Origin: Acidobacteriota bacterium
GTDB lineage: Bacteria > Acidobacteriota > JAAYUB01
Assembly: GCA_016935015.1 (NCBI GenBank)
Contig: JAFGRT010000018.1
Location: 22,693 to 86,692 of the forward strand
Direction: 5' to 3'
DNA length: 64,000 nucleotides
This document shows positions 2,812-39,957 of the stretch, in pieces (the stretch's first letter is position 1; every line of letters begins with the position of its first letter). Position numbers and translations under genes: made by a program. The notes beneath the pieces were generated by a model. The model was not told the DNA's origin and made no database searches. It saw nothing but the letters and a program-made list of their open reading frames with translations.

Positions 2812-4083
2812 ATGATTCAAGATCGTTTGCGGGTCGCCGTTGTGGGGGCCGGCGTGGCCGGTTTGACCGCCGCCTACATTTTGCAACGGATTCATCAGGT
2901 TACCCTCTTCGAAAAGAATTCCTATCTCGGCGGTCACACCAACACTGTTCACATCCCGGAAGGTCCCGATGCCGGCACCCCGGTGGATACCGGCTTCATC
3001 GTCATGAATCACCGCAACTATCCCTTGCTGACGCGTCTTTTTGAGCAACTGAACGTGGAATTGCGGGACAGTGACATGTCATTCGGTTACTGGTGCCAGA
3101 GCTCGGGGCTTCAGTATTCCGGGTCCGGCCTGACCGGCATGTTCGCCCAGCGGCGCAATCTTCTCCGCCCGGCCTTCCTTGGCCTGCTCCGCAATATCAT
3201 GCGCTTCTACCGGCAAGCCAACGCGGATTTGGCCGCGGCAAACCTCGGCGAATTGAGTCTGGGCGATTATCTGAAGCGCGGCCGCTATTCCCCCTGGTTT
3301 GTTCACCACCACTTGCTGCCCATGGGCGCGGCCATCTGGTCCACGCCCTGCGACCGGATGCTGGAGTTCCCCGCCGCGTCCTTTCTGCATTTTTTTCGCA
3401 ATCACGGGCTGCTCTCCCCGCGGAACCGCCCGCAATGGCGCACGGTGGTCGGCGGCAGCCAGACATACGTGCGCCAGATGCAGCGGACCTTCACGGGCCC
3501 CGCGCATCTCGACACGGCGGTGGCGGCCGTCACCCGTCACGAGAACGGGGTGGAGGTCCGGACCGCCGCCGGAGAAACCCTCCCCTTCGACAGGGTGGTC
3601 ATCGCCGCCCATGCCGATGAGGCCTGGCAAATGCTGGCCGACCCCTCGGAGCAGGAAGCCCGGCTGCTGCAACCCTGGGAATACGCCACCAACGGGGTAG
3701 TGTTGCACACGGATACGACGGTCCTGCCGCCCATTCGTCGAGCCTGGTCTTCCTGGAACTTCACTCGGGAGGCGTCCGCGGATGATGAACATCCCATTTC
3801 ACTGACCTATGACATGAACCGACTGCAGGGGCTGCCAACGAAACAGCGCTATCTGGTGAGCCTGAACCGGCGCCGGCCAGTGGATCCCCGCTCGGTGGTG
3901 ATGGAAACGACCTACACCCACCCCATGTACACCCAGACAGCCATGGATACGCAACCCCAGCTGGCGGAATTGAATGGCGGTCGTCACACCTATTTTTGCG
4001 GAAGCTATTTTGGTTACGGCTTCCATGAAGACGCCGTGCGTTCGGCGGTGCAGGTGGCTCAAAAAATGGGGCTGGACCTATGA
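2812..4083 (+). CDS. FAD/NAD(P)-binding amine oxidase-like oxidoreductase
   Basis: N-terminal Rossmann motif VAVVGAGVAGLTAAYIL...EKNSYLGGHTNT. It is the conserved partner of DUF1365/CFAS clusters. Its stop overlaps the next start (ATGA). Confidence 0.8.
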   Translation: MIQDRLRVAVVGAGVAGLTAAYILQRIHQVTLFEKNSYLGGHTNTVHIPEGPDAGTPVDTGFIVMNHRNYPLLTRLFEQLNVELRDSDMSFGYWCQSSGLQYSGSGLTGMFAQRRNLLRPAFLGLLRNIMRFYRQANADLAAANLGELSLGDYLKRGRYSPWFVHHHLLPMGAAIWSTPCDRMLEFPAASFLHFFRNHGLLSPRNRPQWRTVVGGSQTYVRQMQRTFTGPAHLDTAVAAVTRHENGVEVRTAAGETLPFDRVVIAAHADEAWQMLADPSEQEARLLQPWEYATNGVVLHTDTTVLPPIRRAWSSWNFTREASADDEHPISLTYDMNRLQGLPTKQRYLVSLNRRRPVDPRSVVMETTYTHPMYTQTAMDTQPQLAELNGGRHTYFCGSYFGYGFHEDAVRSAVQVAQKMGLDL

Positions 4084-10783: not shown

Positions 10784-11950
10784 TCAATCTCCATCCAGCA
10801 GATTGCCCAGCCCGCCCAGCACCGATCCTTCACCCTTGCGGCTGCCGCCGGCGGATGGTGCATGCGTGTAGATGCGGTCGGCCAGACGGCTGAAGGGTAA
10901 CGACTGCAGGTAAATTTTGCCGGGTCCGGTCAGGGTGGCGAAAAACAGGCCTTCGCCACCGAAAATAGCGGTTTTGACATTACCGACAAACTGAATATCG
11001 TAGGTCACCGTCTGCTCGAGAGCCACCAGACACCCGGTGTCCACCCGTAACGTCTCGCCCGGACCGAGTTCCTTTTTGATGATGGTACCGCAGGCGTGGA
11101 CGAAGGCCTTGCCGTCGCCGTCCAGCCGTTGGAGGATGAAACCCTCGCCGCCGAAGAAGCCGGCCCCGATTTTCTTGTTGAAGGCGATGCCCACAGCGGT
11201 TCCGTAAGCCGCGCACAGGAAAGCGTCCTTCTGACAAATCAGGGTGCCGCCGTGCTCTTTCAGCTCCACCGGAATAATTTTTCCCGGGTACGGCGCGCCG
11301 AAGGCCACTGTCTGTCTGCCCTGGCCCTGATTGGTGAACATGGTGATGAACAGGCTTTCACCGGTGATGACGCGCTTTCCGGCATCCAGCAGCTTGCCCA
11401 TCAGGCCCCGCTGAGCGTTGCTGCCGTCGGAAAATCGGGTTTCCATCTGGATGCCCGACGTCATATACATCATGGCCCCCGCTTCGGCGATGACCGTTTC
11501 GCCTGGGTCCAGGACGATGTCCACGAACTGCATGTCGTCCCCATGCACGTGGTAGTCGATTTCATGGCATTTTTGACCCGGCGGTGCATAGGTCGGCAGG
11601 TGCGCGGCATCGGGTATGCCGGCGGCGGCGCCGGCGGTAGCCGGTTGCGCTGTTGCTTGATCCACCGGTTGTGCTAACGCCTGATCCGCCGGCTGCGCGG
11701 CAGTTTGAGGCGCTGTTTGCGCAGCCGGCTCGGGCGCGGGCTGCGCCGCGGGTGCCGCTGCCGGCGGCTGCAGGTAGGATTGCAATTCGGGCACCTGCCC
11801 CAGTTGGGTCCAGTCCGACATTCCCTGCTTGAAGATGTAGCTCTGAACGTTCAATTGACCATTTCGTATTTGCCGGCCCAGATCCTCAATGGTCATGGGA
11901 CCCTGGGTCTGGCCGTTAACCGCAGTGTACCAAATCTTTTCCATGCTCAT
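10784..11950 (-). CDS. AIM24/TIGR00266-family protein with N-terminal GYF-like (DUF4339) domain and P/A/Q-rich linker
   Basis: The N-terminus is [50 protein letters not shown] (DUF4339 pattern). The C-terminal ~250 aa is AIM24-like ([11 protein letters not shown]..., [28 protein letters not shown]). Confidence 0.7.
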
Positions 11951-24881: not shown

Positions 24882-26264
24882 TTAAAAATTATAAAGAAAC
24901 GAGATGGCCCAGTAATCCGTTTCCCGGGACAGATCCGCCGCCAGATCGAGCAGGAAATGGTTGCGGAAGATCATTCCCAGGCCGAACGTCGCATGATAGT
25001 CCGTATCATTCTCGGGAAAAAGTGCCGCCTGGGCGCGAGGAAAATCGTTGAAAACCTCGTTGATGGGAATCACCACATTGGGCGGCAGGGTGAAGACATC
25101 ATTGCCGGCCCGGTCGCCGATGAAGTGGAGGGAATTGTCGGGATCACTGTAGAAACCGACACGGAGAAAAACCGGCACATCCCGGATATACAGGGCATAC
25201 TCGCCGCCCAGGTGAATTTCCCAACCATGCATGAATTCGTAATCATCCTGAAACTCTTGCTGAATGTAGCCGATAAACTGCGGCGTCAGATCGCCATACT
25301 CAATGCGCACCACGTCGAACGTGAGGGTCAAATCGTCCGTGGGGGTCAATCCAACCCCTACCCCGTAACGGTCCGGAATCTTGATCTGAAAAGCAGGAAT
25401 CTCCTCCCGCAGCGGCTGTTGTTGCAAATCGAGAATATTCTCCTTGAAAACGGCCCGGACCTCATGCCGGGAACCGCTGCGATAGACGGCACCGATCTTC
25501 AGCCAATCCAGCGGCTTGACAATCAGACCGGCCACCCAGCTGATATCCCAATCGTCATCCCGGATACGCAACTGAACGGCTTCGGTATCCCCTTCAGGTA
25601 GCCGGTAAAAAGCGCCGAGCGCCTCAGTGGGCTGCACTTCCAGGGCCTCGAAGGACAGGCGGGAGGCGCGGATGGAGAAACCCAGGTTCAGTCGTTCGCC
25701 ATACCGATGGGCCAGGGAGAAACCATAATTGGTCAGGGTGAAATCGATGGTGGAATCGAACTGCTGCACCACTACCGGCGTGGGCGTCGGATACAGAATA
25801 TTGTACACGTCCGGAATCGTGGCCTGGCGCTGGTGAATGTCGATGGCATAATCGGCCAGCTCCTGACGATAGAACCCAACAGCCCAGTTGCGGAACGGGT
25901 AGACCAGGCTAAGAAAGGTCGGGGAAAACTGGTGATCGGTGGTTTCCGCGTAACGGATCTCTTCGGCGGTGGGGGCCAGGGTGCGGAAGGTGTTGGAGAC
26001 AAGACGACCCTCGATGAAGAGCTGAGGGGTCAGGAGCGCCGTCAGCCCGGCCGGATTGGTCTCTGAACCGGTGGCGTCGTCGCCCAGGGCGATGAAGGCC
26101 TGTCCCATGGCCGTAGCCCGACCGCCCGGGTTGATGAAGTTGAAACGAAAATTGGAAAACGGGAACGTCGGCAGGGGATCACCGGGCCCCTGGCCAAACG
26201 CCGTCGACATCAACAGAAAGATCAATCCCACCGCCGACATCAAACGGAAGCAGAGATGTCTCAT
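24882..26264 (-). CDS. Outer-membrane beta-barrel protein, FadL/PorV/UPF0164-like
   Basis: Signal peptide MRHLCFRLMSAVGLIFLLMSTAFGQ; N-terminal motif GGRATAMGQAFIALGDDATGSETNPAGL; C-terminal aromatic residue (..YNF). Confidence 0.55.
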   Translation of the reverse strand: MRHLCFRLMSAVGLIFLLMSTAFGQGPGDPLPTFPFSNFRFNFINPGGRATAMGQAFIALGDDATGSETNPAGLTALLTPQLFIEGRLVSNTFRTLAPTAEEIRYAETTDHQFSPTFLSLVYPFRNWAVGFYRQELADYAIDIHQRQATIPDVYNILYPTPTPVVVQQFDSTIDFTLTNYGFSLAHRYGERLNLGFSIRASRLSFEALEVQPTEALGAFYRLPEGDTEAVQLRIRDDDWDISWVAGLIVKPLDWLKIGAVYRSGSRHEVRAVFKENILDLQQQPLREEIPAFQIKIPDRYGVGVGLTPTDDLTLTFDVVRIEYGDLTPQFIGYIQQEFQDDYEFMHGWEIHLGGEYALYIRDVPVFLRVGFYSDPDNSLHFIGDRAGNDVFTLPPNVVIPINEVFNDFPRAQAALFPENDTDYHATFGLGMIFRNHFLLDLAADLSRETDYWAISFLYNF

Positions 26265-26423
26265 GGTCTGGATTCTCCTCGTTGCGGACATGGTTCACCA
26301 TAGCAAAAAGTGACAACAAGATCAAAAGGAATCCAGAGCCTGTCGCCGTCATACCCGGCCGGAATATTCCGCTGCCCTCGCCGTTTTCGGCGACGGCACC
26401 GCATGCGCTCGGCGGCTTGATGC

Positions 26424-27379: not shown

Positions 27380-30300
27380 TTATCGGGCGATCTCTTCGCT
27401 GAAGGACTGGGGCGGAACGGCCGACATGAAGGTGCCGGCCATGTCGCCGAACAGCTCGAAAGCTACCAGGCGGGCGGCCGGGTCGGAGGTGGTGATGGTG
27501 ATGTATCCTTTGATCTGGGGTAGCAGTCCGGGCACGAAATCGGCAAGCATCCGGCTACTTTTGGTTCCGGCCAAAATGGGGACATCACCGGCTCCCGTCA
27601 GATTGCCGAATTCGTCGAAGACCTCGAAATGGGCGACGGCATCATTGGCGCCGGCATTGAGCAGGGTGAGGCCGGTAAAGTAATCGGTGCCGTACAATTC
27701 ACCGTAGGCCAGATGGGAGAACATCATCCGGTTCAGGCCCCCGGCCTGCAGGACCAGCGTGGCGGCGAAGCTGGCCTGCGCGCGATCGCCGAAGGTAAGG
27801 GTGCCGCCCAGGCCCGACTGATCGGAATCCACCTGCAAAAAACCCACTTCATAGTCCACGGACTGCCAGTCGATGTCCAGCAACTGTGAAAGCTCCTCGC
27901 GCCGCATCCCGCCCGGCGGTATCATCGCCGGCGCCGACGTCCGGAATGGCGTGCCGTCATCCCGGAAAGCGCTGATCACGATCTCCGCCGGATTCGCGGA
28001 GCGATTGTACAGCTCGAGGACGGAGCGGTAAAACCGCCCTTCGGCAAAATGGGGCGCATACAGACGGGAAGCGGTTTTGTCCGGCTCGGTCAGCACCACG
28101 CCCGGCGCGGCGGTCATCAGGTTGTCCGTTCCGCCGTACTGAAAGCAGTCCAGCGGCCGATCGGCGCTCACTTCAAGATAGCAGGCGCCGGTGACACCGG
28201 GAAACATGTCGCTGAACGGAAACGACAGCCGCCCACCCGGCGCCAAGGTGGTCTGGAACGGATCGGCCAGCCCGCTTCCGTCGGTGCCGATACACGCGAC
28301 GGTCACCCGGGCGGTGGCATCGTTGGGATTGACGATGGAGACCTGGCAGTCACCATCTGTGGTCAGGGATTCGTTGGTCGGCAGAATGGTGATCACTGCC
28401 GGCACCTCCTGGGCGACAGCGCCATCCATAAAAGGCCCCGCTGTTACCGAAGTCAACAAGTAGAAGCCCTGCAGGCGGGGGCTCAGGGATACGGCTCGCA
28501 TCCATGGATGATAGGCGTTGATGCCGCTGCCGAAGATATCCGTCACGTAAAAGGCAATCTGTTCCCCTTCAGGGATGGTCAGGGCCACGGGATTCTCCAC
28601 ATCGGGATCGGCCACCAGCGATCCGTCTTCATCATACAGGGAAAAATAGACCAGCGCCTCACCGCCGCCGGCCGGATTGGCCAGGGCGAAGGCTGCGGCC
28701 ACCTCCGTCGAGGTCTCACTGTTGGGGAAATCCAGAATCCGGTAGTTGCCCTTCAGCAAAGACACGAACTCGGTGTCGGGCGAAATGCCGATATACCCGC
28801 CGCCGTTGCCAAAGGAGAGCCACAGCAGCTCCTCCACCTCACCCGTCTCCGTCAGCACGGCAGCCGGGATCAAAAGGCCCTGCTGCACGCCTTGGTAGAT
28901 ATAAATATCCTGGCTTCCACCGTTGGCCACCGCTACATCCTCGAATCCGTCGGCATTTAAATCGGCAACGGCGATGGAGGTCGGATTGGTGCCGGCCGGC
29001 AAATCCTGATAGAGTTCGAACTCGAACGAGGTGAGCGCGCTGAAGGTATGGAGCAGGCCCTCGCCGTCGGTACAGACCAGGATATCCGCCAGCCCGTCAT
29101 CGTTCAGGTCCGTCGCTTTCAGATCCGTGGGCGAGGCAGCGGTGATTAGGGTGGACGCCGCTTCGAAATCCCCGTCGCCCATCCCCCGGAATACCCGGAC
29201 CAGGCTGTCGGTACCGTCGACGACGGCGATATCCGGCGCCTGGTCGCCGTTGAAATCGGCGGTGGCCATGGTGACGGGTCCGCTGCCGGCCGCCAGGACC
29301 TGGTTCAGGGAAAGATTACCGCTCCCGTCATTGAGATAAATCTGCAGGGTTTGTTCGGAATTGCTGAGGAACGCGTAATCGGTGAAGGTATCCTTGTTGA
29401 AATCCGACGAGGTTCCCTCGCCCTCGCCGGCGGGAACCGAAAAGAGGCTGCTCTTGCCGGTGGCCATTATAGACTTCCCGGCGGCGGATTTGCCGAACTG
29501 TCCGGTGTTGAACAGAATGAACACATTGCCGGTGACGGGATCGGTCAGCAACAGATCCACACGACCGTCGTTGTCGAAATCCTGAATGGTGATGTCATGG
29601 GCGGCAAAACCGATGTTCACCATCAGCGGTGGCCGGAAATTCATTCCCGGCCGGGGATCTTTCAGGAGAACCGCGATCTGCGGCACCCCGGCCAAGGTAA
29701 CGATCAGGTCATCATAGCCGTCATTGTCCAGATCGCCCCGGGCCACCCGATCCGGCACATGGGCCAGGTCTACCTGATCGGGTGGGCGGTCAGGCGCGAA
29801 ACTCTCCTGCCGACGATCGATCCAGGCCCTGAGTCGAAACCGGTAATCCTGGCCGCTGCGCAGATACAGGTCGGCCACCGCCAAGAAGTAGACACCGGAT
29901 TCGGGTACGATGAATTGCACGTAAGAGTCCACGCCGCGGTAATTGTTGTTGAAGGCCAGGGTCCGCGGAAAACCGCTGAAGACATGCACCACCGGATCCA
30001 GCCGCAGATTCCCTTCCGCATCGGGCAGGCTTTCCACCGTTACATTCAGGATCTCGCCGGCCGAGGCGGCAAACCGATAGTAATTGTAAGGAATCAACCC
30101 CGCCAGTTGATCTTCGAGCTCGGCTGGAACATTGACGGTGATTTCCGTGGCCTCGTCCACGTATATCCGTGAATCGGCCTGTGCCCCGCCGTATTCCGGC
30201 GGAACCTTCAGCGTAAGCAGCGTGCCACCCCGGTTCAAACCCTGCAGATGGGCTACGAGATGGTTGCCGTCCCGGATTATCGTCGTATCGATGAATTGGG

Positions 30301-31750
30301 CAATGCCAACGGGATCGAACGCATGATTGATGGTCAGGTCTTCGCTGACACGATCATTGGTGTTGATACCGAAACCCCGCACCTCCCCCCGCGGGAGGAG
30401 AAAATGGTTTTGCCAGGCCTGGAGCTGGAGAACGGGCTGCGTCCCACTGACCTCCTGTAGAAGGATGGTCTGGGAAAACTCCGACGTATTCCCCTCCGCC
30501 GTGGCCAACAGCGTGACCGCATGGCCGGGATCCATGATGAACGGAACGGTGAACTCACCGTCGTCCGCCGCCACCGTTTCTCCCAGAAACAGCATGCCCT
30601 CCCCGTATCCGGAAGGATCCGGATCCGCCTCATACACCTCGACCAACGCCTGAGGCATGGTCACGCCGTGCAAGGTAAAACGGTGCACATTGAAAAGACG
30701 CTCATGCGTGTAATCGTAGAGAATGGGCGCCGGCATGAGTTGATTGGGACCGGCACGAAATTCCATGTTGCTGTAACGGTTGGGACCATCACCGTAGCCC
30801 CCGATCAGGCTTAGATCCACGCCGAGAGCGCCGTTGCCGAAAATGGAATTATGGCTGATGACATTGCCGACGGCTTCTTTCCCCTCGACGAGCACCCCGC
30901 TGAAGCGGTTGCCGATGATGATATTCCTCTCGCTCAAGGTGCTACCGCCCACCATGGTATGCTTCCCGCGAATCCGGATACCCGTGCCGTTGGGCGTGGT
31001 CTGGGCCGGATTCAACAGTTCGGTGGAGCCCAGCACATTGCGCTGGAACCGGTTGAACTCGCAGGTAGGGGATGCGACAAAGATCCCGGTATCCTTGCAA
31101 TTGACAAAGGCATTCCCTCCCAGGGTCACGGCTTCGCCGATGGTGTTGTCGGAAGCCCCGTTGGCAAGATACACGCCGTGCCGCAGTTGGATTTTGTCCT
31201 CACCGAAACCCGACAGGACCGACAGGCCGAACAGGCAGCCGGCCACGGCGTTGTGGTGGGCGTCCGGACCATTCAGCAGCACGCCGATACTGTTCCGCCC
31301 GCCGAACACCAGGTGCTTGAGGGTGTTGCCTGACGATTGAATGGTCAGAATGGGCTCGCCGGGAGTGTCGGCCGAATACACGGGATGGATCAGGAAGATC
31401 CGGATGAGCAGCCGTTTCTCCAGATCCGTGAAGGTGTCGTTGGTCAAACCGACGATGAGCGTCTCGGGTATCTTGAGGGCCGGCAGCGGCCGGGATAGCA
31501 GCAGGACACCCGAATTGGCCAATTCCTCGGCAAAGATGATCTGGACGGGTTCACCCATTCCGTTGCGGGTCTGGATGGCCTCGCGCAGGCTCATGACGTT
31601 GTCGCCGGGATCGATATCCGAATCAGGCGGATCGAGCAAGGTGTTCACGGTAATGGTGGTTTGTCCCTGGACCAGGGCCGGACAAAGAACCAATATCCCC
31701 AACATACATAACCATTTAACAAAAGATGTTCGGAAAAAGAAGCTCATTGT
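27380..31750 (-). CDS. Giant secreted protein (1456 aa): signal peptide, CSLREA-type motif, right-handed parallel beta-helix repeats, FG-GAP (integrin-alpha-like) repeats, and four C-terminal ~110-aa beta-sandwich-like repeats
   Basis: Start MSFFFRTSFVKWLCMLGILVLCPALVQG with GAGGTG RBS. MSLREAIQ motif. Gly/Asn-rich beta-helix rungs (NVISHNSIFGNGALG...). Repeated Dx[DN]xDGxxD motifs (DLDNDGYDDLIV, DFDNDGRVDLLL, DFNGDQAPDIAV, DLNDDGLADILV, DLNADGFEDVAV). Confidence 0.8.
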   Translation of the reverse strand, partial: TMSFFFRTSFVKWLCMLGILVLCPALVQGQTTITVNTLLDPPDSDIDPGDNVMSLREAIQTRNGMGEPVQIIFAEELANSGVLLLSRPLPALKIPETLIVGLTNDTFTDLEKRLLIRIFLIHPVYSADTPGEPILTIQSSGNTLKHLVFGGRNSIGVLLNGPDAHHNAVAGCLFGLSVLSGFGEDKIQLRHGVYLANGASDNTIGEAVTLGGNAFVNCKDTGIFVASPTCEFNRFQRNVLGSTELLNPAQTTPNGTGIRIRGKHTMVGGSTLSERNIIIGNRFSGVLVEGKEAVGNVISHNSIFGNGALGVDLSLIGGYGDGPNRYSNMEFRAGPNQLMPAPILYDYTHERLFNVHRFTLHGVTMPQALVEVYEADPDPSGYGEGMLFLGETVAADDGEFTVPFIMDPGHAVTLLATAEGNTSEFSQTILLQEVSGTQPVLQLQAWQNHFLLPRGEVRGFGINTNDRVSEDLTINHAFDPVGIAQFIDTTIIRDGNHLVAHLQGLNRGGTLLTLKVPPEYGGAQADSRIYVDEATEITVNVPAELEDQLAGLIPYNYYRFAASAGEILNVTVESLPDAEGNLRLDPVVHVFSGFPRTLAFNNNYRGVDSYVQFIVPESGVYFLAVADLYLRSGQDYRFRLRAWIDRRQESFAPDRPPDQVDLAHVPDRVARGDLDNDGYDDLIVTLAGVPQIAVLLKDPRPGMNFRPPLMVNIGFAAHDITIQDFDNDGRVDLLLTDPVTGNVFILFNTGQFGKSAAGKSIMATGKSSLFSVPAGEGEGTSSDFNKDTFTDYAFLSNSEQTLQIYLNDGSGNLSLNQVLAAGSGPVTMATADFNGDQAPDIAVVDGTDSLVRVFRGMGDGDFEAASTLITAASPTDLKATDLNDDGLADILVCTDGEGLLHTFSALTSFEFELYQDLPAGTNPTSIAVADLNADGFEDVAVANGGSQDIYIYQGVQQGLLIPAAVLTETGEVEELLWLSFGNGGGYIGISPDTEFVSLLKGNYRILDFPNSETSTEVAAAFALANPAGGGEALVYFSLYDEDGSLVADPDVENPVALTIPEGEQIAFYVTDIFGSGINAYHPWMRAVSLSPRLQGFYLLTSVTAGPFMDGAVAQEVPAVITILPTNESLTTDGDCQVSIVNPNDATARVTVACIGTDGSGLADPFQTTLAPGGRLSFPFSDMFPGVTGACYLEVSADRPLDCFQYGGTDNLMTAAPGVVLTEPDKTASRLYAPHFAEGRFYRSVLELYNRSANPAEIVISAFRDDGTPFRTSAPAMIPPGGMRREELSQLLDIDWQSVDYEVGFLQVDSDQSGLGGTLTFGDRAQASFAATLVLQAGGLNRMMFSHLAYGELYGTDYFTGLTLLNAGANDAVAHFEVFDEFGNLTGAGDVPILAGTKSSRMLADFVPGLLPQIKGYITITTSDPAARLVAFELFGDMAGTFMSAVPPQSFSEEIAR

Positions 31751-31933
31751 TGCACCTCGGGGAAACCCATTCAATCCGTCCTGCTCATCACACAACACCG
31801 GTGAATGGCCGCCTTCATCCGGGTAGTTTTTCCGGCCGCAATCCTGAGACCGGTCCGTCACGCGCCGGCGGGAATTCGCCCTCGCCACACGGATGGCGTT
31901 CGGTTTGTTGAACCCGGTAACCAGTCAAAAGTT

Positions 31934-33568
31934 TCACTCGTCCGCCGGCTGGTCGGCTCCGCGCCATTCATCGAACTTTTTCAGCGCCTTGCCGGCAATC
32001 CAGCGGCGCGGCGGCTCAAAAGAGGGGGAAATTTGCGCGATGTCCCGGCGGGCCTTCTCCAGGAAATCGGAGTTTTTATCGCCTTCCAGATACTGCAGAT
32101 AAATCTGCGACATGGCGCGGAAAAACAGGGCCAGATCGCGGCGGGTGCCCTTTTCCAGGTAGGTGTCGAAATAAAAAGTGGCCTTGTGATAATCCCCTTC
32201 TCTGAAAAAGAGCCGCAGTCCTTCCTTGAGATACTCCTCCACAGCGAGCCGCCCACTTTCGGCCCTTCCCTGGCGCAGGCTCTGCTGCAACCCGGCGATG
32301 GTACCGGCCCCGGGATAATCCTGGGCCAGTGCGTTGAGCGCCGTCTCCGCGGTCTCGAAATCTTGGGCAGTGATCATTTGTTCAATTTCACCGGTTCGCT
32401 GGGCCAGGCGGTTCTCGGCCTGCCGGATATCATCCAGGTGTTGGACCGCGTCAGCGCCGAAGCGCGGATCTTCCCGCAGATGATACAGCAGCGGCTTGGC
32501 CTGCTGGTACCTCTTGGCATTCAGCAGGCTCTGGGCCTGGCGCCACTCCTGCGCGGCGGCAATCCGCTCACGGAGAGCCGACACGGCCGGGACCGTCGCG
32601 CCGCCATCCTCCAGCAGGCGGCACAAGCCGTCCGCCGCCTCCAGCTCACCACTTTCCAGACGCGTCTGGGCCTCTTCGAGCATACGTCCCAACAGCCGCT
32701 GACGCAAAACACCCACTTCGGGCTGCGTGCCCTGCCGCTCGGCGATACCCCGCAGTAAGGCCAGCGCTTGTCCGTATTTTTTCTGCGACAACAGATCCTG
32801 GATCTCCTGCAGCCGTTCCCTGAAGACCCGGCGTTCTGTCTTCTGCTCGATGCTGGCCGCACTTACCCGTTGCCGCATTTCCTGGGCCGCGCCGTGCAAT
32901 CGCTTGATTTTCTGCAACTCCGCCAGGGCCTCATCGTATTTCTCCGCTCCAAACAACCGCTGGGCTTCGGACAACGCCTGCTCATCATCGGCCAGCTCCT
33001 TCAGCCGGCGTTCGGCCTCCGCGGCGGTGGTTGAATCCTGCCGGGCCAGCGCGTCGGACTGAACCTGGCGCCAGAGATGGCGGGCACCGTTCAGATCGCC
33101 CGAGCGCAGACGCTCCTCGCCCTCGGCCAATTTGTGCTGCATTTCCGGGTCCAGCGGCGCCGGAACGGTCGGCCGGGCCTGGGCCTGGCGGTCACGCGCC
33201 GAACCCACGGCGGACTTGAGATCCGCCAGTTTGTGCCGGAAATCTTCATCCCCAAGGATCTCCTTCCAACTTTCCGACAGACCGATATACTCTTCGGCAG
33301 CCTCATACTTGCCCTGGTTGTAATAGGCCTCGGCCAGCCAGTAATAGGGGAAATAATCGATGCGGATGTTGCTGTGTATTTTCTTGTTGCGCTTGGGCTC
33401 AGGCTCTTTGCGGATGGCGATGCGCAGATTCTCCACCACATCGCCCCAGCGGCCTTCAGCCTTGGCCTTCATGGCGTCGTCCCAGTACTTGTACCATTCC
33501 TGTTCCGCCGCCGGCAGGACAGCCGAGACCAGACAGACCGACCACAGGATGAGCGCCGCCCGCTTCAT
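31934..33568 (-). CDS. Secreted tetratricopeptide-repeat (TPR/helical repeat) protein
   Basis: Signal peptide MKRAALILWSVCLVSAVLPAAEQ, followed by ~500 aa of A/E/R/L/Q-rich helical repeats. The start overlaps the kinase stop (ATGA). Confidence 0.7.
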   Translation of the reverse strand: MKRAALILWSVCLVSAVLPAAEQEWYKYWDDAMKAKAEGRWGDVVENLRIAIRKEPEPKRNKKIHSNIRIDYFPYYWLAEAYYNQGKYEAAEEYIGLSESWKEILGDEDFRHKLADLKSAVGSARDRQAQARPTVPAPLDPEMQHKLAEGEERLRSGDLNGARHLWRQVQSDALARQDSTTAAEAERRLKELADDEQALSEAQRLFGAEKYDEALAELQKIKRLHGAAQEMRQRVSAASIEQKTERRVFRERLQEIQDLLSQKKYGQALALLRGIAERQGTQPEVGVLRQRLLGRMLEEAQTRLESGELEAADGLCRLLEDGGATVPAVSALRERIAAAQEWRQAQSLLNAKRYQQAKPLLYHLREDPRFGADAVQHLDDIRQAENRLAQRTGEIEQMITAQDFETAETALNALAQDYPGAGTIAGLQQSLRQGRAESGRLAVEEYLKEGLRLFFREGDYHKATFYFDTYLEKGTRRDLALFFRAMSQIYLQYLEGDKNSDFLEKARRDIAQISPSFEPPRRWIAGKALKKFDEWRGADQPADE

Positions 33569-35619
33569 CGGCTGTCCTCCTGTGACAGAATGCTCTCAAT
33601 GACGGTCTCGACGTCAAATTCGGGCAGTGTTTTCCGGATGGCAACCGTCTGTCCGGCGTCAATGGCAAATTCCTCAACGATAGGGTTGTCCTGGAGATTC
33701 TGCCGCTGATAGCGGAGACGGTACCGGCCCGTCGGAAGTGCCAGCCGCAGCGGCGTCTCTTGCTCCGGCAACAGGATGGCTTCCCGGGTGCCTGTATCGA
33801 TCAAGTCCAGGATTTGCACGGCCGGCCGGATGTCCAGCAACAGGACGCCATTGGGCACTGGGACCGGCTCGGATCGGGTCTGTCGCACCACCACCACCAC
33901 AACGACGGCCAGCACCAGTGTTACGAAAATCAGTAACGGTACCAGCCACTTGCGTCGCCGGGCCGCCAGAATCTGGCGGGTGCTTTTTTTCAGCCGAGAA
34001 TCGACCCCCACCTGCTCCACCGCGGCGCCGGCCACCTGCAGGGCCGCGTCGTACTCCTTGCGCAGGTAGAGGGCCTCCATCTCCTGGAGGGCCCGCCCGA
34101 CAACCTCTTCCTTCTCCGCGGCGGCGATCTCGTCCAGCATCTCCGCCGCCGGGGGGTAGTCGGCCATCACGTCCATGGCCAGCCGGCAGTATCTCCGGGC
34201 CTCGTCCCGCTGCCCCTCGGCCAACATAACCCGCGCCTGGTCAGTCCATTGTTCGGCCTTGGCCTGGCGCTCCCGCCGGTCGATGAGCTCCTGGATATCG
34301 TTCAGCTTGACCGACAGATCCCGGGCCGCAGGATTGAGCTTCAAGGCCTCGCTGTACAGTTTTTTGGCCTCATCGAGCTTCTCCTGCTGCAGGGCGGTAT
34401 GCCCCAGCTGCATGTACTTTTCGATGGTCTGGTTGAGTCGTTTCTCTGCCTCTTTTTGGTGAGTTTTCCGGACCCACTCCAGCGCCATGGTATTTTCCGG
34501 CTCGACGGACAGCGCTTCGTTGAAGCACTCCAGGGCGAGATCATAATGATCATCATCAAAAAAGGTGATCCCCTCCGTCAGCAACTCCTCGATGCGCGCC
34601 TTGCGCTTCTTTTCGGCGATGTCCTCTTGCAACGCCTCGATGATTTCGGGCGATTCCCCCTGGGCGCGCAGCTTGTCCAGCACCCGCAACGCCTGGTCAA
34701 ATTTGCCTTCTTTGAGATAGCGGTTCACCAGATCGATCTTGATGCTCTGTTCTTCCGACCGGGTGCGCGGCACGGCGATGGTGGGTTCCATGGACATGTC
34801 CTGCTCGAACTCATCCTTGAGCTTGCGCAGGCGCCGGGCCAGGCTGGCCAGATCGGCGAACCGGTTTTCAGGTGATTTATCCAGGGCTTTCAGCACTATT
34901 TTTTCCAGCGATGACGGGCAGGCCGGGTAAACATCCCGCAGGGGACGGGGATTCTCGTGAAGAATCTTATACATGATGTTGGTATAGGTTTCGCCGTCGA
35001 ACGGACGCCGCCCGGTCAGCAGCTCGTACATGATCACGCCCAGGGAAAACTGGTCCGAGCTGCCGGCCAACGTCTCGCACTTGACCTGTTCCGGCGACAT
35101 GTAGCTGGGTGTGCCCAGCAGCATGCCCGTCTTGGTCATAAGGGAGGACTGGCTGATGTGAGCGATGCCGAAATCGACAATCTTGACCTTGCCGTTGGTG
35201 AGCAGAAAGATATTGGCTGGCTTGATGTCCCGGTGGATGATCCCGTGGCTGTGGGCGAAATGAAGACCTTCGCACACCTGGATGATCAGATCGATGATCT
35301 TTTGCAGGGTGAAGATATGCCTATGCTGTATCAGCCGGAACAGGTCGTCTCCCTCCAGAAACTCCATGGCGATGAAAGGAACACCCTGATCTTCGTTCAG
35401 TTCATAAATAACGACGATGTTCTCATGATGCAGCCGTCCCGGAGCCTGGGCTTCCTTGAAGAACCGTTTCTTGAACTCCGCATCGGACTGGCTGGAGTAG
35501 GACATGGTCTTGAGGGCCACATAGCGGCCCATGAGCGGGTCAAAGGCCTTGTAGACATGGCCCATGGCCCCTTTGCCGATCTCCTCGATGATTTCGTATT
35601 TGCCCAGCTTTTTCAGCAT
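33565..35619 (-). CDS. Hanks-type Ser/Thr protein kinase with cytoplasmic TPR region, single TM and ~105-aa extracytoplasmic C-terminal domain
   Basis: Kinase subdomains GKGAMGHVYKA, VALK, HRDIKPANIF, DFGIA, SPEQ. TM segment LVPLLIFVTLVLAVVVVVVV. Confidence 0.85.
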   Translation of the reverse strand: MLKKLGKYEIIEEIGKGAMGHVYKAFDPLMGRYVALKTMSYSSQSDAEFKKRFFKEAQAPGRLHHENIVVIYELNEDQGVPFIAMEFLEGDDLFRLIQHRHIFTLQKIIDLIIQVCEGLHFAHSHGIIHRDIKPANIFLLTNGKVKIVDFGIAHISQSSLMTKTGMLLGTPSYMSPEQVKCETLAGSSDQFSLGVIMYELLTGRRPFDGETYTNIMYKILHENPRPLRDVYPACPSSLEKIVLKALDKSPENRFADLASLARRLRKLKDEFEQDMSMEPTIAVPRTRSEEQSIKIDLVNRYLKEGKFDQALRVLDKLRAQGESPEIIEALQEDIAEKKRKARIEELLTEGITFFDDDHYDLALECFNEALSVEPENTMALEWVRKTHQKEAEKRLNQTIEKYMQLGHTALQQEKLDEAKKLYSEALKLNPAARDLSVKLNDIQELIDRRERQAKAEQWTDQARVMLAEGQRDEARRYCRLAMDVMADYPPAAEMLDEIAAAEKEEVVGRALQEMEALYLRKEYDAALQVAGAAVEQVGVDSRLKKSTRQILAARRRKWLVPLLIFVTLVLAVVVVVVVRQTRSEPVPVPNGVLLLDIRPAVQILDLIDTGTREAILLPEQETPLRLALPTGRYRLRYQRQNLQDNPIVEEFAIDAGQTVAIRKTLPEFDVETVIESILSQEDSR

Positions 35620-35637
35620 ATTCGATGAACAGTCCGC

Positions 35638-36228
35638 TTATTTCTGTTTCATGACATACGGATCCAGGATGATGTCCTCCAGTTTGCGCTTGGGCACATG
35701 ATGCATACCGTCCTCGCTGCGCCAGTAGCGGATACTCCCATCCGGTCCCATCGTCTCCAGCCGGACCGCCTCGCTGGGTTTGCCGAGGGCCACCACCAGC
35801 AGAATTTCAAAGGAATCCGGCAGGGACAGATCCCGCTGCAGACCCACGCGGTTGACGGAACCCATGATACAACCACCCAGTCCTTTTTCCGCGGCGCCCA
35901 GCATGATGCTCTGGGCGGCGATCCCCTGATCCACCCGGAAAGATCTCGCCAGTTGCCGGTCGCCCAGAATGACGATGTAGGCCGTTGGTCGCTCGCCTTC
36001 TGCGGGACCCGGCCAATCCTTGAGATATCCGGCCCAGGACAGGTGGCGGAAGATGACATCATTGGCATGCGGATCACAGGCCAGATAATACTTGAGGGGC
36101 TGTATATTGGCCGAACTCGGCGACAGGCGCGCCAGGTCGACCAATTCCCGCAGCGTATCGGCCGTAATCTTCTGCGCCTCGTCGAACCTGCGGTAGCTCC
36201 GGTTTTGCCGGATAAGATCATGTAACAT
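35638..36228 (-). CDS. Nitroreductase-family flavoprotein
   Basis: N-terminal RSYRRFDEAQKITADTLRELVDLARLSPSSANIQP is the classical NfsB-like nitroreductase motif. It lies 18 nt upstream of the kinase gene. Confidence 0.8.
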   Translation of the reverse strand: MLHDLIRQNRSYRRFDEAQKITADTLRELVDLARLSPSSANIQPLKYYLACDPHANDVIFRHLSWAGYLKDWPGPAEGERPTAYIVILGDRQLARSFRVDQGIAAQSIMLGAAEKGLGGCIMGSVNRVGLQRDLSLPDSFEILLVVALGKPSEAVRLETMGPDGSIRYWRSEDGMHHVPKRKLEDIILDPYVMKQK

Positions 36229-36409
36229 GGAAACCTCCCGCCGGATTGCAGAATTTCAGATGCCGCCGCGGTTGCCGTCACCAGCCGGATGGCCGCTCTT
36301 TATCGTTCTGCCCTTTTTATATCACAGAAATCGGAATTATTTCCAGCTTCGTTCTGCACGGGTTCCATTTCCGCCCGGCTGATCATCCGCATGAATGACA
36401 ACCGGCGGC

Positions 36410-36418
36410 GGGGGGGGG
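36410..36418. repeat. Homopolymeric G9 tract (C9 on the coding strand of the flanking operon)
   Basis: ggcggcGGGGGGGGGtgaatc; intergenic, ~30 nt after the 36445 stop and ~180 nt upstream of the nitroreductase start. Confidence 0.6.
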
Positions 36419-36444
36419 TGAATCTTTTATCGGGGCTTTGCACT

Positions 36445-36987
36445 TCATTTGTCGGCGGATCGGGCCCGGACGCCTGCCGCCTGGTGTTCGAGACCAGGTG
36501 GTTTGGTCCTGGATCGTAAAAACACCCAGGCGGCCTTGCCGCCGATGGTGATGAGGATGATGGACAGATAATTCGCCCAGAGATGATGGGCTTCGTGAAG
36601 AAAGAACGTCCAATCGAAATGGGCCGGGTAGTCCGACAGGATCGCCGGAAATACGAACGCAGGCAGGACAAACATCCAGCAGAGGGCATCGAGTGCGATG
36701 GACAGAATGATCCAATACAATGTCAGGCACCGCCACTCCATATCGAAGAACCTGACGCCGTCATGACCGGTGGTGCGATAGTACAAGTATGCAAAGACCA
36801 TATAGACGATTGGAAACACCGATACCGTGGCAATGATCATCATGTCCGCCGAGATATACATGTAGATCAGTGTTCCGCCGATATTGCCGGTCAAATATGG
36901 AATCATGTTGTAGATGGTGGCCCATTTCCAGTTCATCACAAGGTGTTCCCTTGCCGTTTCGTTGCAAAGCCAGAACTGCCGGGACAA
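36445..36987 (-). CDS. Hypothetical integral membrane protein encoded in a locally low-GC (~48%) segment
   Basis: Hydrophobic Y/W/F-rich helices (IYMYISADMMIIATVSVFPIVYMVFAYLYY...). The start is uncertain (MSRQFWL vs MNWKWATIY). Confidence 0.4.
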   Translation of the reverse strand: MSRQFWLCNETAREHLVMNWKWATIYNMIPYLTGNIGGTLIYMYISADMMIIATVSVFPIVYMVFAYLYYRTTGHDGVRFFDMEWRCLTLYWIILSIALDALCWMFVLPAFVFPAILSDYPAHFDWTFFLHEAHHLWANYLSIILITIGGKAAWVFLRSRTKPPGLEHQAAGVRARSADK

Positions 36988-37145
36988 GTCCCGTTGCTTC
37001 TGTTATGGTTTGCGATGCGCGGATTCTATAGACAGAAAAAACGCTTGTCATCATTAAACACATTCTTCACCTGCCGGGAAGGAAGTCGGGTCATCACCCG
37101 GAAATTGGCCGAATCCTTGCGTTCAGTGATAAAATAGCCCTCACA

Positions 37146-38279
37146 ATGGATGCGAAACAACCCGTTGCCGGGCAACATACAATCGCCTCGCTGATTGTGC
37201 TGGCAGTATTCCTGCTTCTAACCGGCGGGCTGCCCCTGCTGGGCGTCCTCGCCGGCGGATTGCCACTGCGCCGCTATCTGGAATTCCCGCCGCAGACGCG
37301 CTATGTGGACCATGCCGCTTTCTCCTGGTGGCTGTTTGTTTTTCTGGCGCTGCTGATCCTGGGGACCGTGGCGCCGTTCGTGATACACGTTCTCCGCCAG
37401 GCCCGGACCGCGACAGCGCCACCATCCCCGGCACGGGCCTTCCCCTGGTGGGGCTGTGCCGGCCTGGGTTGCGGGGCACTGTTCTGGCTGTTGTCCTGGA
37501 CCCGTTTCCCCTGGTTCCAGAACTTCCAGGCCTTCACGTTCACGCCCCTCTGGCTGTCGTACATCATCGTCATCAATGCCTTGAGCTGGCGACGCACCGG
37601 CCGTTGCCTCATGTGCCGGCGGCCCTGTTTCTTTTTACTGCTCTTCCCGACGAGTGCCGTTTTCTGGTGGTTATTCGAGTATCTTAACCGCTTCGTTCAG
37701 AACTGGTACTATGTGGGGGGCGGGCCTTACGATGCGTGGGAATATTTCTGGCGGGCGACGCTCCCTTTTTCGACCGTCCTGCCGGCAGTCCTGAGTACCA
37801 CTGGCTGGCTGGAGTCCTTCCCACGCCTGACCGCCGGCCTGGAGGATTTCATCCGTCTGCCGGCTGTTCGTTCATACCCTTGGGCTGCCCTCCTGCTGCT
37901 GGGCTTCGGTGCCGGACTGGTCGGCATCGGCCGCTGGCCCAATGTGCTGTTTCCCCTGCTGTGGACCGCTCCGCTGGCCATCCTCGCGGCGTTGCTGACC
38001 TTGGCGGGCCGGCCGACCCTGTTCGACGGCGTGCGACAGGGCGACTGGCGGCGGGTGGTCCGCCTGGCCCTGGCCGCCCTCATCTGCGGCTTCTTCTGGG
38101 AGATGTGGAACTCCCACAGCCTGGCCAAGTGGGTATACGAGATCCCCTATGTGGGGCGCTTTCACCTCTTCGAGATGCCCGTGCTGGGGTATTCCGGCTA
38201 TCTCCTCTTCGGCCTGGAATGTGGCCTCATCGCCGATCTTTTCGGAGGCGATGCTCCGGCGCGGCCGGACGTCCATTGA
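37146..38279 (+). CDS. Large polytopic Trp/Phe-rich integral membrane protein of unknown function
   Basis: 377 aa with at least 9 hydrophobic segments and no recognisable enzyme motif. It lies directly upstream of the ECF sigma gene. Confidence 0.5.
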   Translation: MDAKQPVAGQHTIASLIVLAVFLLLTGGLPLLGVLAGGLPLRRYLEFPPQTRYVDHAAFSWWLFVFLALLILGTVAPFVIHVLRQARTATAPPSPARAFPWWGCAGLGCGALFWLLSWTRFPWFQNFQAFTFTPLWLSYIIVINALSWRRTGRCLMCRRPCFFLLLFPTSAVFWWLFEYLNRFVQNWYYVGGGPYDAWEYFWRATLPFSTVLPAVLSTTGWLESFPRLTAGLEDFIRLPAVRSYPWAALLLLGFGAGLVGIGRWPNVLFPLLWTAPLAILAALLTLAGRPTLFDGVRQGDWRRVVRLALAALICGFFWEMWNSHSLAKWVYEIPYVGRFHLFEMPVLGYSGYLLFGLECGLIADLFGGDAPARPDVH

Positions 38280-38406: not shown

Positions 38407-39027
38407 ATGACACCCTATACCGATGAAGAGCTCATGGCCGAACTTGTCCGGGGCGAAACCGGCGCCTTGGACGAATTGTACCGTCGTTATGCCCGTCCGC
38501 TGTATGTCTTTTGCGACCGGTTGATCCAGTTACGGGGAACGCGCCAGGCCGAAGACCTGGTTCAGGATATTTTTCTGCGGGTGATCCGTGGTGCCGCCGG
38601 TTTCGACTCTCGCAGGGCATCTTTCCGGACATGGCTTTTTCGGATCGCCCGCCATGGCTGCATCGATGTGCTGCGACAGCGGGGTAAAGTGAAAATCGTT
38701 CCGCTGGAAGAGGAAAAGGCTCGGTCGGATGATCCGTACCTCCGGCCGCAAGCGGTTGAAAATCCGGCCGGATCAAATATACAAGCGGAAACGGATGCAA
38801 CCCAGATGCTGGTTCATACCGAATGGCGGCAAGCCATCCGGGATTGTATCGCGGCCTTGCCGAACTACGAAGAACGGGAAGCCGTCATCCTTTACTATCT
38901 GGGCGGCAAGGTACTTGTGGAAATCGGGCGAATTCTGGGCAAATCCACCAGTACGGCCAAAAACCGGGTTTGGGCGGCCCGCGCGAAATTGAAGGCATGC
39001 CTCGCCGGCAAGGGTGTGAGCCCTTAG
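38407..39027 (+). CDS. ECF (sigma-70 family group IV) RNA polymerase sigma factor
   Basis: Region 2 (LVQDIFLRVIRGAAGFD...FRTWLFRIARHGCIDVLR) and region 4 HTH (ILGKSTSTAKNRVWAARAKLK). Confidence 0.85.
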   Translation: MTPYTDEELMAELVRGETGALDELYRRYARPLYVFCDRLIQLRGTRQAEDLVQDIFLRVIRGAAGFDSRRASFRTWLFRIARHGCIDVLRQRGKVKIVPLEEEKARSDDPYLRPQAVENPAGSNIQAETDATQMLVHTEWRQAIRDCIAALPNYEEREAVILYYLGGKVLVEIGRILGKSTSTAKNRVWAARAKLKACLAGKGVSP

Positions 39028-39096
39028 GCTCGATCAGGCTTGCAAAATTGACCTGTCCCGCAGTACATATAGTAAGAAGGGAGCGCCGCCAGTAGC

Positions 39097-39957
39097 ATGA
39101 AGGATGAAAATCTGGACCGGATCATGGACAGATGGGTGGAAGAAGAGTTGCGCCGGGCGCCGGAGATCCGCCCGGCCGAGGCCGTCTACCGTCAACTGGA
39201 CACGATCCGGATCATTGGACAGCCATCCCGCTCCAGACTTTATATCGTCGCCAGTACCGCCGCAGCGATGATCGCCGTCGTCGTGGTGTATATCATCTTT
39301 CTGATGCCGCCGCCGGCGCCAGCGCCACCCATTCCGACACCCATCGGGTTGCGCAAGGGTTTTTTACCGGGCCGCGGCGGTAGCGAAAAGGGGCCGGAAA
39401 TTTCACCGCGCGGTGACCTATCGGCCAAACCCAAGAAAGGGGGGCGAGCTTTCAGCCAATTGCTGATCCAGTATCAGCGACCGGAAGCACGCCGCATCCG
39501 GGAATTCGACCTCCGGCAGAGGCCACCCCAACCATTTTCCCTTACGGCGGCCGACAACTACCGTCTGGTGCTTGGTGTGAGCGCTTATCGCCACGTATAT
39601 GTCGTTCAGCTCAGTCCGGACCTGGCCCCGGTGATGCTTTTCCCCAACCGGCAGCATTCCCCGGCACCCAATCCGGTGCCGGCCGGGCGAACACTTCAGC
39701 TGCCCGGCGATCCTTACTGGTTCCATCTGGGCAACACCGCCGGCGAGGAACGTTTGCTGATCCTGGCGGCCGAGATGCCTTTCCGCAAACTGGAAGAATT
39801 GTGGAACAGCTATTTGACCGCCGGCGATGCGGATGAGCAGCAGACCTTTCGACGCCAGCTGGTGGATTTGCTTCAGGCACCGCCTGCCGCCGCGGAGATT
39901 CCCCTCGAAGTGACGGTGTTCTTTTTTCAACATCATCCGCCCGAGGATCATCGCTGA
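39097..39957 (+). CDS. Putative anti-sigma factor: short cytoplasmic N-domain, one TM, Pro-rich linker, periplasmic DUF4384-like domain
   Basis: 69 nt downstream of the ECF sigma gene. TM helix LYIVASTAAAMIAVVVVYIIFLM, then PPPAPAPPIPTP. Confidence 0.55.
   Translation: MKDENLDRIMDRWVEEELRRAPEIRPAEAVYRQLDTIRIIGQPSRSRLYIVASTAAAMIAVVVVYIIFLMPPPAPAPPIPTPIGLRKGFLPGRGGSEKGPEISPRGDLSAKPKKGGRAFSQLLIQYQRPEARRIREFDLRQRPPQPFSLTAADNYRLVLGVSAYRHVYVVQLSPDLAPVMLFPNRQHSPAPNPVPAGRTLQLPGDPYWFHLGNTAGEERLLILAAEMPFRKLEELWNSYLTAGDADEQQTFRRQLVDLLQAPPAAAEIPLEVTVFFFQHHPPEDHR

Follow-up and report, generated by a model that had tools for sequence, protein, structure and literature searches.

How does a bacterial Ser/Thr kinase come to be encoded beside two exported proteins, one of them 1,456 residues long? 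The question is raised by a locus on the minus strand of a 64,000-nucleotide stretch of DNA (contig JAFGRT010000018.1, positions 22,693 to 86,692; hereafter the window) from an uncultured member of the Acidobacteriota, available as a metagenome-assembled genome (MAG). The window is an ordinary piece of chromosome whose flanks hold housekeeping genes (PNPase, RNase E/G, transaldolase, HslUV-like), and NCBI lists the proteins of the region of interest as MBN2430174-78, with JXQ27 locus tags. An initial annotation had read five co-directional open reading frames (ORFs) at positions 27380-36987 as one operon, encoding a dedicated cell-surface signalling or adhesion module. All five ORFs are present on the minus strand at the coordinates assigned to them, but the conserved unit consists of three: the genes of a Hanks-type kinase, of a secreted tetratricopeptide repeat (TPR) protein and of the giant protein. 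Gene order and gene trees indicate that an uncultured Acidobacteriota clade has passed kinase-TPR-giant on vertically as a three-gene cassette. We propose, tentatively and with somewhat less than even confidence, that it is an extracytoplasmic glycan- or envelope-sensing module feeding the kinase. The features of the locus are listed below, those of the cassette before its two upstream neighbours.

33565-35619, minus strand: single-pass Hanks-type Ser/Thr kinase, 684 aa (Pkinase E 5e-57; NCBI 'protein kinase' MBN2430176.1)
31934-33568, minus strand: secreted TPR-superhelix protein, 544 aa (N-terminal hydrophobic signal; predicted from an AlphaFold2 model)
31906-31936, minus strand: promoter-like motif TGAAACTTTTGACTGGTTACCGGGTTCAACA, which begins within the stop codon of the TPR gene and is conserved across loci
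27380-31750, minus strand: giant secreted multi-domain protein, 1,456 aa (NCBI 'VCBS repeat-containing protein' MBN2430174.1)
27404-28750, minus strand: four predicted ASRT/TM1070 (ASRAH)-fold repeats of the giant, ~105 aa each, tandem beta-sandwiches
35638-36228, minus strand: nitroreductase-family protein, 196 aa (PF00881 E 6e-22)
36445-36936, minus strand: 163-aa hydrophobic ORF with two broad hydrophobic stretches, hypothetical protein MBN2430178.1; outside the module

Conservation of the three-gene cassette

To collect orthologous loci, contigs were looked up by exact protein and 1.84 billion representative proteins were searched by profile. A profile search of genome contigs with the giant alignment returned one short full-length orthologue (L014) together with generic FG-GAP matches, and a scan of the genome contigs with the single giant protein gave no match. 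At least seven divergent lineages, all metagenomic, have the kinase, TPR and giant genes in one order and orientation (window/L001, L005, L009/L010, L077, L078/L079, L080 and L081/L082). L001 is a close relative with fully syntenic flanks and so no independent case; L077 is a fragment in which only a short, unverified gene start follows the TPR gene. Relative to the window, identity declines as far as 55% among the kinases, 32% among the TPR proteins and 41% among the giants, and kinase orthologues are 52-87% identical in L001, L005, L009, L078, L081 and L083. What surrounds the triad differs by lineage: nitroreductase, CarD (L009) or FHA-GGDEF (L081) genes lie upstream and RHH, CarboxypepD_reg or LytTR genes downstream, the last being a response regulator in L081, while in L005 the cassette is framed by CBM/dockerin and DUF4332 genes upstream and a CarboxypepD_reg gene downstream. 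Neighbour-joining trees of the kinase, the TPR protein and the giant are congruent. The initial annotation had staked its module on conserved linkage, and persistence of the triad amid unrelated flanks, with congruent trees, bears that linkage out.

Are the genes as tightly packed as an operon would suggest? Spacing of 0-18 bp or overlap had been claimed throughout and holds at two of the four junctions, namely the 18-bp gap between the nitroreductase and kinase genes and the 4-bp ATGA overlap between the kinase and TPR genes, which is plain in the sequence. The remaining junctions measure 216 bp (membrane ORF to nitroreductase) and 183 bp (TPR stop codon to giant ATG). A five-gene operon is rejected, as the membrane ORF lies 216 bp away and lacks a counterpart in syntenic L001, and the nitroreductase is limited to one sub-clade. 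In all loci the TPR gene directly follows the kinase gene, and the two overlap by 4-14 bp wherever both gene ends were called; kinase and TPR protein are made together, translationally coupled.

A membrane-spanning kinase with a small ectodomain

The catalytic domain of the kinase is matched by PF00069 at 193.6 bits against a cut-off of 31.7 (E 5e-57; aa 8-254, nt 34858-35598), and its motifs (GKGAMG, VALK, HRD in HRDIKPAN, DFG and SPE) are intact in the translation, so that both marks of a Hanks-type Ser/Thr kinase are present. Pfam TPR_1, TPR_2, TPR_8 and TPR_14 match at ~aa 290-440, within a TPR array that spans ~aa 285-545. Hydropathy places a single transmembrane segment at aa 555-583 (nt 33871-33957), directly preceded by RRRK, which predicts an N-in orientation with the catalytic domain and TPR array in the cytoplasm and the last ~100 residues outside. 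The transmembrane Hanks kinase with cytoplasmic TPR repeats of the initial annotation agrees with these predictions. The ectodomain itself (aa 584-684, nt 33568-33870) is beta-rich, ~100 aa long and conserved among orthologues, and is also found on a shorter kinase of the remote locus L012.

The best NCBIfam match of the kinase, NF033483 (PknB_PASTA_kin), reaches 332 bits against a cut-off of 450 and covers aa 6-316 only, and Pfam finds no PASTA repeat in the protein; an identity as a PASTA kinase of the PknB/Stk1 type was rejected, the kinase domain alone being matched and the score lying below the cut-off. A defence-system kinase was likewise discarded, since the PADLOC matches (PD-T4-6 and the MADS component mad6) are limited to the generic kinase domain at aa 5-290. 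The other genes had no PADLOC match apart from one faint match in a TPR region.

An exported TPR superhelix

The 544-aa protein opens with a hydrophobic, signal-like segment at aa 3-23. Its Pfam TPR matches are all sub-threshold (19.9-24 bits against cut-offs of 23.5-27), and its profile matches are TPR proteins. The AlphaFold2 model (pLDDT 87) is built of ~25 helices arranged as hairpins and is all-helical save for a small beta-hairpin in the first repeat. The top Foldseek matches of the model, P58IPK, APC/C subunits and OGT (probability 1.0), are generic TPR superhelices. On the strength of the model the protein is a TPR superhelix, and its initial description as a secreted all-TPR protein agrees with both the N-terminal signal and the modelled helical hairpins.

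Two modules of the protein are conserved, an N-terminal one at aa 24-120 (EWYKY…YFPYYWLAEAYY) and a C-terminal one at aa 437-537. As a full-length entity the family is tiny, with 8 orthologue clusters at 50% identity among the representative proteins, and a word-indexed protein search recovered only three homologues. The N-terminal module (~120 aa) is common to at least 190 other proteins, some of them with STAND ATPases. At profile level the middle of the protein is similar to TPR arrays found in very large kinases. Descent of the protein as a paralogue of the kinase's own TPR array was considered and set aside, the similarity being faint (best E 0.014). The beta-hairpin inserted in the first TPR, KRNKKIHSNIRIDYFPYY (aa 59-72, window 33352-33393), is conserved and lies inside the N-terminal module shared by proteins of varied architecture.

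A giant protein of carbohydrate-associated modules

The ATG of the giant at position 31750 is backed by a GAGGTG ribosome-binding site that is conserved in four loci, 6-7 nt before the codon. From its N-terminus the protein comprises a signal peptide (aa 1-29), a CSLREA-like start (33-61), a beta-helix with cap and sandwich ending in GNTSEFSQ (~62-430), an Ig-like region (~440-545), a PPC-like domain (555-625), an FG-GAP propeller (~660-970) and the ASRAH-like tetrad (1001-1449). A gene of this kind might be an assembly artefact, as the initial annotation itself had warned. The ORF contains no tandem DNA repeats and is colinear from end to end, at 37-88% identity, with full-length orthologues from independent assemblies (the orthologue alignment comprises seven sequences), which rules out mis-assembly or repeat collapse. 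In L007 a second gene (4606-5013) lies right after the giant orthologue P0006, at the contig end; its first ~100 residues are 39% identical to the N-terminus of the giant, and the similarity points to a tandem paralogue.

The N-terminal third is homologous to CSLREA/parallel-beta-helix proteins, through the rungs, the cap and the sandwich ending in NTSEFSQ. Against the rung region of the CSLREA protein P0026, BLASTP gives an E value of 4e-19, and dozens of homologues carry PF13229. The giant itself has no Pfam Beta_helix (PF13229) match at threshold, and TIGR03804 reaches E 0.36. TIGR04214, whose cut-off is 25 bits, reaches 14.1 bits (E 0.033, aa 33-61): the motif reads MSLREA in the window and L/T-SLREA or TLREA in orthologues, its Cys being replaced by M, L or T in all of them. 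Of the initial annotation, the CSLREA-type motif is sub-threshold, and the pectate-lyase-like rungs hold as homology to the rung region of CSLREA proteins. The PPC-like domain is similarly below threshold (PPC E 2e-4), and the giant also has a weak DUF5719 match.

The central propeller is clearer. PF13517 (FG-GAP_3) matches at 102.5 bits against a cut-off of 26.9 (E 2e-29) in five stretches, and PF01839 at 42.4 bits. Five loops of the DxNxDG type were found by regular expression (aa 673, 724, 783, 881 and 930) and a sixth, ADFNGDQ at aa 831, by eye; repeats above threshold together with calcium-binding-type loops mark an FG-GAP/VCBS propeller, and the annotated FG-GAP calcium-binding repeats are corroborated.

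The C-terminal repeats are the most conserved part of the giant. The last 491 residues, modelled with seven orthologues (pLDDT 73, pTM 0.73), fold into four beta-sandwiches, in agreement with the repeat alignment and with the four repeats first described. The repeats are modelled as eight-stranded sandwiches of the TM1070 fold. The near-invariant Asn at the end of strand 2 described for the ASRAH superfamily (PMC2739507) has its counterparts in N1025, N1141, N1249 and N1365, invariant in the seven orthologues; across all repeats only this Asn and one Gly are invariant. A profile of the repeats matches 2ii7 marginally (E 0.018), the Pfam ASRT model has no match in the giant, and the conserved Trp of strand 1 is not evident in the repeat alignment. 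Secreted ASRAH versions occur as dyads or tetrads, and sugar binding by the superfamily is itself a prediction (PMC2739507). From the modelled fold and the Asn we interpret the tetrad as a predicted sugar-binding domain of the ASRT/TM1070 (ASRAH) fold.

A promoter-like motif before the giant gene

Between the TPR gene and the giant lies a motif with the consensus tGAAACtTT…GGnTTnAA. The pattern occurs once in the window, against 0.02 occurrences expected by chance, and its position weight matrix scores 30 at 31906-31936 against 16.4 at the next best site in the window. The motif stands at the same place in L001 and L005, and also in L009/L010 and before the stand-alone giants of L002 and L006. 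When a matrix built from four loci was applied to the held-out loci L006, L078, L080 and L014, the upstream site came first or second out of 9-17 thousand positions in each; in L081 and L007 it is a weaker match. Its distance to the ATG ranges from 65 to ~200 nt across loci, a spread to be expected if a leader of variable length follows a promoter. The -35-like element GAAACTTT (G-AAC-T-tract) fits the general architecture (G, AAC, T-tract) of -35 elements of extracytoplasmic function (ECF) sigma factors (PMC1540707). Read as a promoter, the motif would predict a transcript 5' end ~7-10 nt downstream of GGGTTCAA. A structured RNA in the 183-nt spacer was dismissed, with a folding z-score of +0.33 and no Rfam match in the window. 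The motif is conserved before the giant gene, stand-alone copies included, so the gene is probably not simply co-transcribed with the others and has a candidate promoter of its own.

An ECF sigma gene (38431-39027, plus strand) lies 2 kb off and is followed by a DUF4384 gene, the pair spanning 38431-39957; the DUF4384 protein is possibly the anti-sigma partner. Region 2.2 of this sigma factor has the canonical QAED (QAEDLVQD), and tblastn found no match to it in L001, L005, L009, L081 or L083; the DUF4384 gene is kept in L001. The sigma factor was rejected as the cognate regulator on account of its canonical motif and its absence from the related loci.

A model for the cassette and its alternatives

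What might the three proteins do together? Each of the three is predicted to reach into the extracytoplasmic space, with signal-like hydrophobic segments at the start of both the TPR protein and the giant, and the giant appears to be built of modules associated with carbohydrate recognition (ASRAH tetrad, beta-helix). In the sensing model that we favour, the giant would be exported across the inner membrane and would bind a carbohydrate polymer via its ASRAH tetrad, beta-helix and FG-GAP propeller. The TPR superhelix, kept at a fixed ratio to the kinase by translational coupling, would act as a periplasmic adaptor that links the giant, or its ligand-bound state, to the small beta-rich ectodomain of the kinase, and the kinase would phosphorylate cytoplasmic targets recruited by its own cytoplasmic TPR array. 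The giant would be transcribed separately from the conserved promoter with its ECF-type -35 element, which would allow its level to be controlled on its own and perhaps make it an output of the same pathway. An adhesion role, offered initially beside signalling, finds no specific support, and the domain content points instead to carbohydrate binding. A dedicated module of kinase and giant exoprotein is upheld by the conserved linkage and must be qualified in other respects: it has three genes, the giant has its own motif, and each part also occurs apart.

Several observations weigh against the sensing model. The only match of the kinase ectodomain profile is a weak CarboxypepD_reg/NOMO-like signal, and no sorting signal was recognised in the giant that would decide between a periplasmic and a released location. 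In L083/L084 the kinase-TPR pair is followed, with a 4-bp overlap, by RelA/SpoT, and there is no giant within 10 kb. The giants P0004/P0005 stand alone in L002/L006 with the motif kept and no kinase adjacent, which argues that a giant can function without an adjacent kinase. All data, moreover, come from metagenome assemblies of uncultured organisms.

The loci with the kinase-TPR pair (L083/L084, 7950-13827) belong to the NCBI MAGs GCA_020047475.1 and GCA_018001935.1, and their upstream flank (transaldolase, fn3-like, HslU, HslV) is syntenic with the window at 40.7-43.9 kb. RelA/SpoT is a (p)ppGpp synthetase, and its position raises the possibility that the kinase pair is connected with the stringent response.

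Could the giant simply be a self-sufficient secreted protein that binds or processes polysaccharide, next to a kinase-TPR unit of separate function, with the adjacency a matter of inherited synteny? The giant's own conserved promoter-like motif and its retention by stand-alone giants are what such autonomy predicts, and L083, where the kinase-TPR pair is joined to RelA/SpoT in place of the giant, fits it too. The lineages form one narrow group (8 TPR-orthologue clusters among 1.84 billion), and shared ancestry may explain part of the linkage. However, the order and orientation of the triad persist down to 31-43% identity despite flanks that differ in every lineage, and the stand-alone giants nest in the tree beside L005, within the linked clade, hence are derived. 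We judge full autonomy, the main rival reading, to be rather unlikely. A different coupling would run through transcription, the kinase and a TPR co-sensor activating an ECF-type sigma factor or its anti-sigma factor by phosphorylation and the sigma factor driving the giant promoter, as in PknT–EcfP and PknS–EcfK. The G-AAC-T-tract of the motif is an ECF-type -35 element, in most lineages the kinase gene is found just upstream of the promoter, and kinase-activated ECF sigma factors are documented (PMC8999054). Yet the module has no ECF sigma gene conserved alongside it; the one at 38431-39027, with its QAED, is not of the ECF43 type and goes unmatched in the five loci searched; the -10 part, GGnTTnAA, is assigned to no known ECF group; and stand-alone giants keep the motif without a nearby kinase. 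Such a cascade seems to us improbable.

The TPR protein might instead assist the making of the giant. Periplasmic TPR proteins have chaperone- or scaffold-type roles in exopolysaccharide secretion and type 9 secretion, and here one would serve the export or assembly of the giant, with the kinase tuning the process and a FadL-like outer-membrane protein as a possible partner. The unvarying gene order, in which the giant comes straight after the TPR gene, is in keeping with this, as are the FadL-like gene found downstream in the window and L001 and separated from the giant by a 10-bp gap in L008, the remote loci L012 and L013 in which a related kinase ectodomain or TPR N-module is combined with FadL-like proteins, and the type 9 secretion protein SprE among the Foldseek matches of the TPR model, a generic TPR match only. 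The stand-alone giants, however, have no TPR gene nearby, the FadL-like gene is not adjacent to the giant in L005, L081 or L002, and the TPR fold matches are generic; we give this biogenesis role very little probability. At the other extreme, the sensing model can be pushed further, to a new type of receptor complex in which the giant is a detachable glycan-binding subunit, the TPR adaptor docks it to a minimal kinase ectodomain, and the kinase feeds back on the giant's ECF-type promoter. We regard this extension as improbable in its entirety; if true, diderm bacteria would possess a split 'receptor kinase' with extracellular polysaccharide as its ligand.

Comparison with known systems

The closest analogue that we recognise is PknG–GlnX–GlnH of Actinobacteria. 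PknG is a soluble kinase, and its signal arrives via the membrane protein GlnX and the solute-binding lipoprotein GlnH. As in the cassette, a TPR scaffold lies C-terminal to a Hanks catalytic domain, and adjacent genes encode exported proteins thought to supply the signal; PknG, a TPR-bearing kinase, is informed by an extracytoplasmic ligand-binding protein of the same operon (PMC8546545). In contrast to PknG, the cassette kinase itself spans the membrane and is partnered by a TPR protein of 544 aa and a multi-domain protein of 1,456 aa. There are no GlnX or GlnH homologues at the cassette, homology extends only to the kinase and TPR folds, and the likeness is one of analogy only. Receptor kinases such as PknB/Stk1 (PASTA) and PknD (beta-propeller) share with the cassette kinase a cytoplasmic kinase domain, one transmembrane helix and an extracytoplasmic domain. 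The cassette differs in that the ectodomain has ~100 aa and no PASTA repeat, whereas propeller, beta-helix and ASRAH-like domains reside on a separate protein.

CSLREA and parallel beta-helix proteins (TIGR04214, PF13229) are homologous to the N-terminal third of the giant, which differs from them in having lost the Cys of the defining motif (M/L/T-SLREA) and in scoring below the family cut-off. To our knowledge these families have no known function, and membership would add little. ASRAH domains are found elsewhere in secreted amidase-fused tetrads of Chloroflexi and in actinobacterial lipoprotein dyads (PMC2739507); in the cassette the tetrad shares its polypeptide with a beta-helix, a PPC-like domain and an FG-GAP propeller, and not with an amidase. 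With PknT–EcfP and PknS–EcfK (ECF43; PMC8999054) the cassette has in common a Ser/Thr kinase gene adjoining a gene with an ECF-type -35 promoter. An ECF43-type kinase-activated system calls for an adjacent sigma factor without the DAED motif that is conserved with the kinase; no ECF43-type sigma is linked to the cassette, the nearby sigma carries QAED and is not conserved with it, and the assignment was rejected. The literature on CSLREA, DUF5719 and PEGA-plus-kinase proteins yielded nothing relevant, and a search for a system of this composition found no description, in line with the initial annotation. The cassette appears to be undescribed and made of familiar domain types.

Neighbouring genes

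The nitroreductase is well supported as a family member (PF00881, 79.1 bits against a cut-off of 23.5), and no NCBIfam equivalog was reached. It precedes the kinase only in the window, L001 and L005 and is absent from L009, L081 and L083; L078 is uninformative, with only 197 bp of sequence upstream of the kinase. The nitroreductase is an accessory gene of one sub-clade, outside the conserved core. The 163-aa membrane ORF has no family match and no tblastn or blastn counterpart in L001, an otherwise fully syntenic, 88%-identical relative. Its GC content is 0.53 against 0.59-0.62 in its neighbours. The ORF with its upstream region (36445-37145) has a GC content of 0.49-0.53, below that of the neighbours, and has no DNA or protein counterpart in L001; its appearance is that of a recently inserted segment or a rapidly evolving spacer. 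Upstream of the ORF, at 37051-37023 (minus strand), is a match to a sigma-70-like promoter. Divergent from the module follows a 377-aa polytopic membrane protein (37146-38279, plus strand), without a Pfam, NCBIfam or PADLOC match and 75% identical in L001.

Downstream of the giant, ~1.1 kb away and after RHH and YccF genes, lies a gene for a FadL/TodX-like outer-membrane protein (24882-26291, minus strand). In L008 a homologue 61% identical to it (3308-3904) starts 10 bp past the stop codon of the giant, and FadL-like proteins in L012 (2168-3550) and L013 (167-3097) adjoin a kinase with the same ectodomain or proteins with the TPR N-module. The FadL/TodX-like protein may be a fourth, looser partner of the cassette. 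At 3189-8706 in L013, Big_13, Glucodextran_B and an LpoB/CsgG-like domain are joined to a remote relative of the TPR N-module in one protein. Before it comes a Sortilin/BNR, CarboxypepD_reg and FadL fusion, and after it a single protein that unites adenylate cyclase, CHAT, TPR and CsgG-like domains. This is an unusual envelope-associated cluster. Two further genes of the window are unrelated to the cassette: a single-ORF fusion of DUF1365 with a cyclopropane-fatty-acid-synthase-like methyltransferase (4080-6080, plus strand) and a GYF_2–AIM24 protein (10784-11950, minus strand).

Implications

What would such a cassette mean for the biology of these bacteria? The weight of the finding is limited by the familiarity of each component, by the uncultured state of the organisms and by a function that is only predicted. 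Signals or partners are known for very few Hanks-type kinases outside Actinobacteria and Firmicutes, and we found none for Acidobacteriota. The conserved and co-evolving cassette pairs a Hanks kinase with two exported proteins, one of which carries predicted sugar-binding domains, and the predicted tetrad would add a new architecture and a new phylum to those in which the ASRAH (ASRT-like) domain occurs. The conserved motif before the giant could define a regulon. Taken as a sensing module, the cassette would be a testable candidate for the perception of polysaccharide or envelope status in abundant bacteria of soils and sediments.

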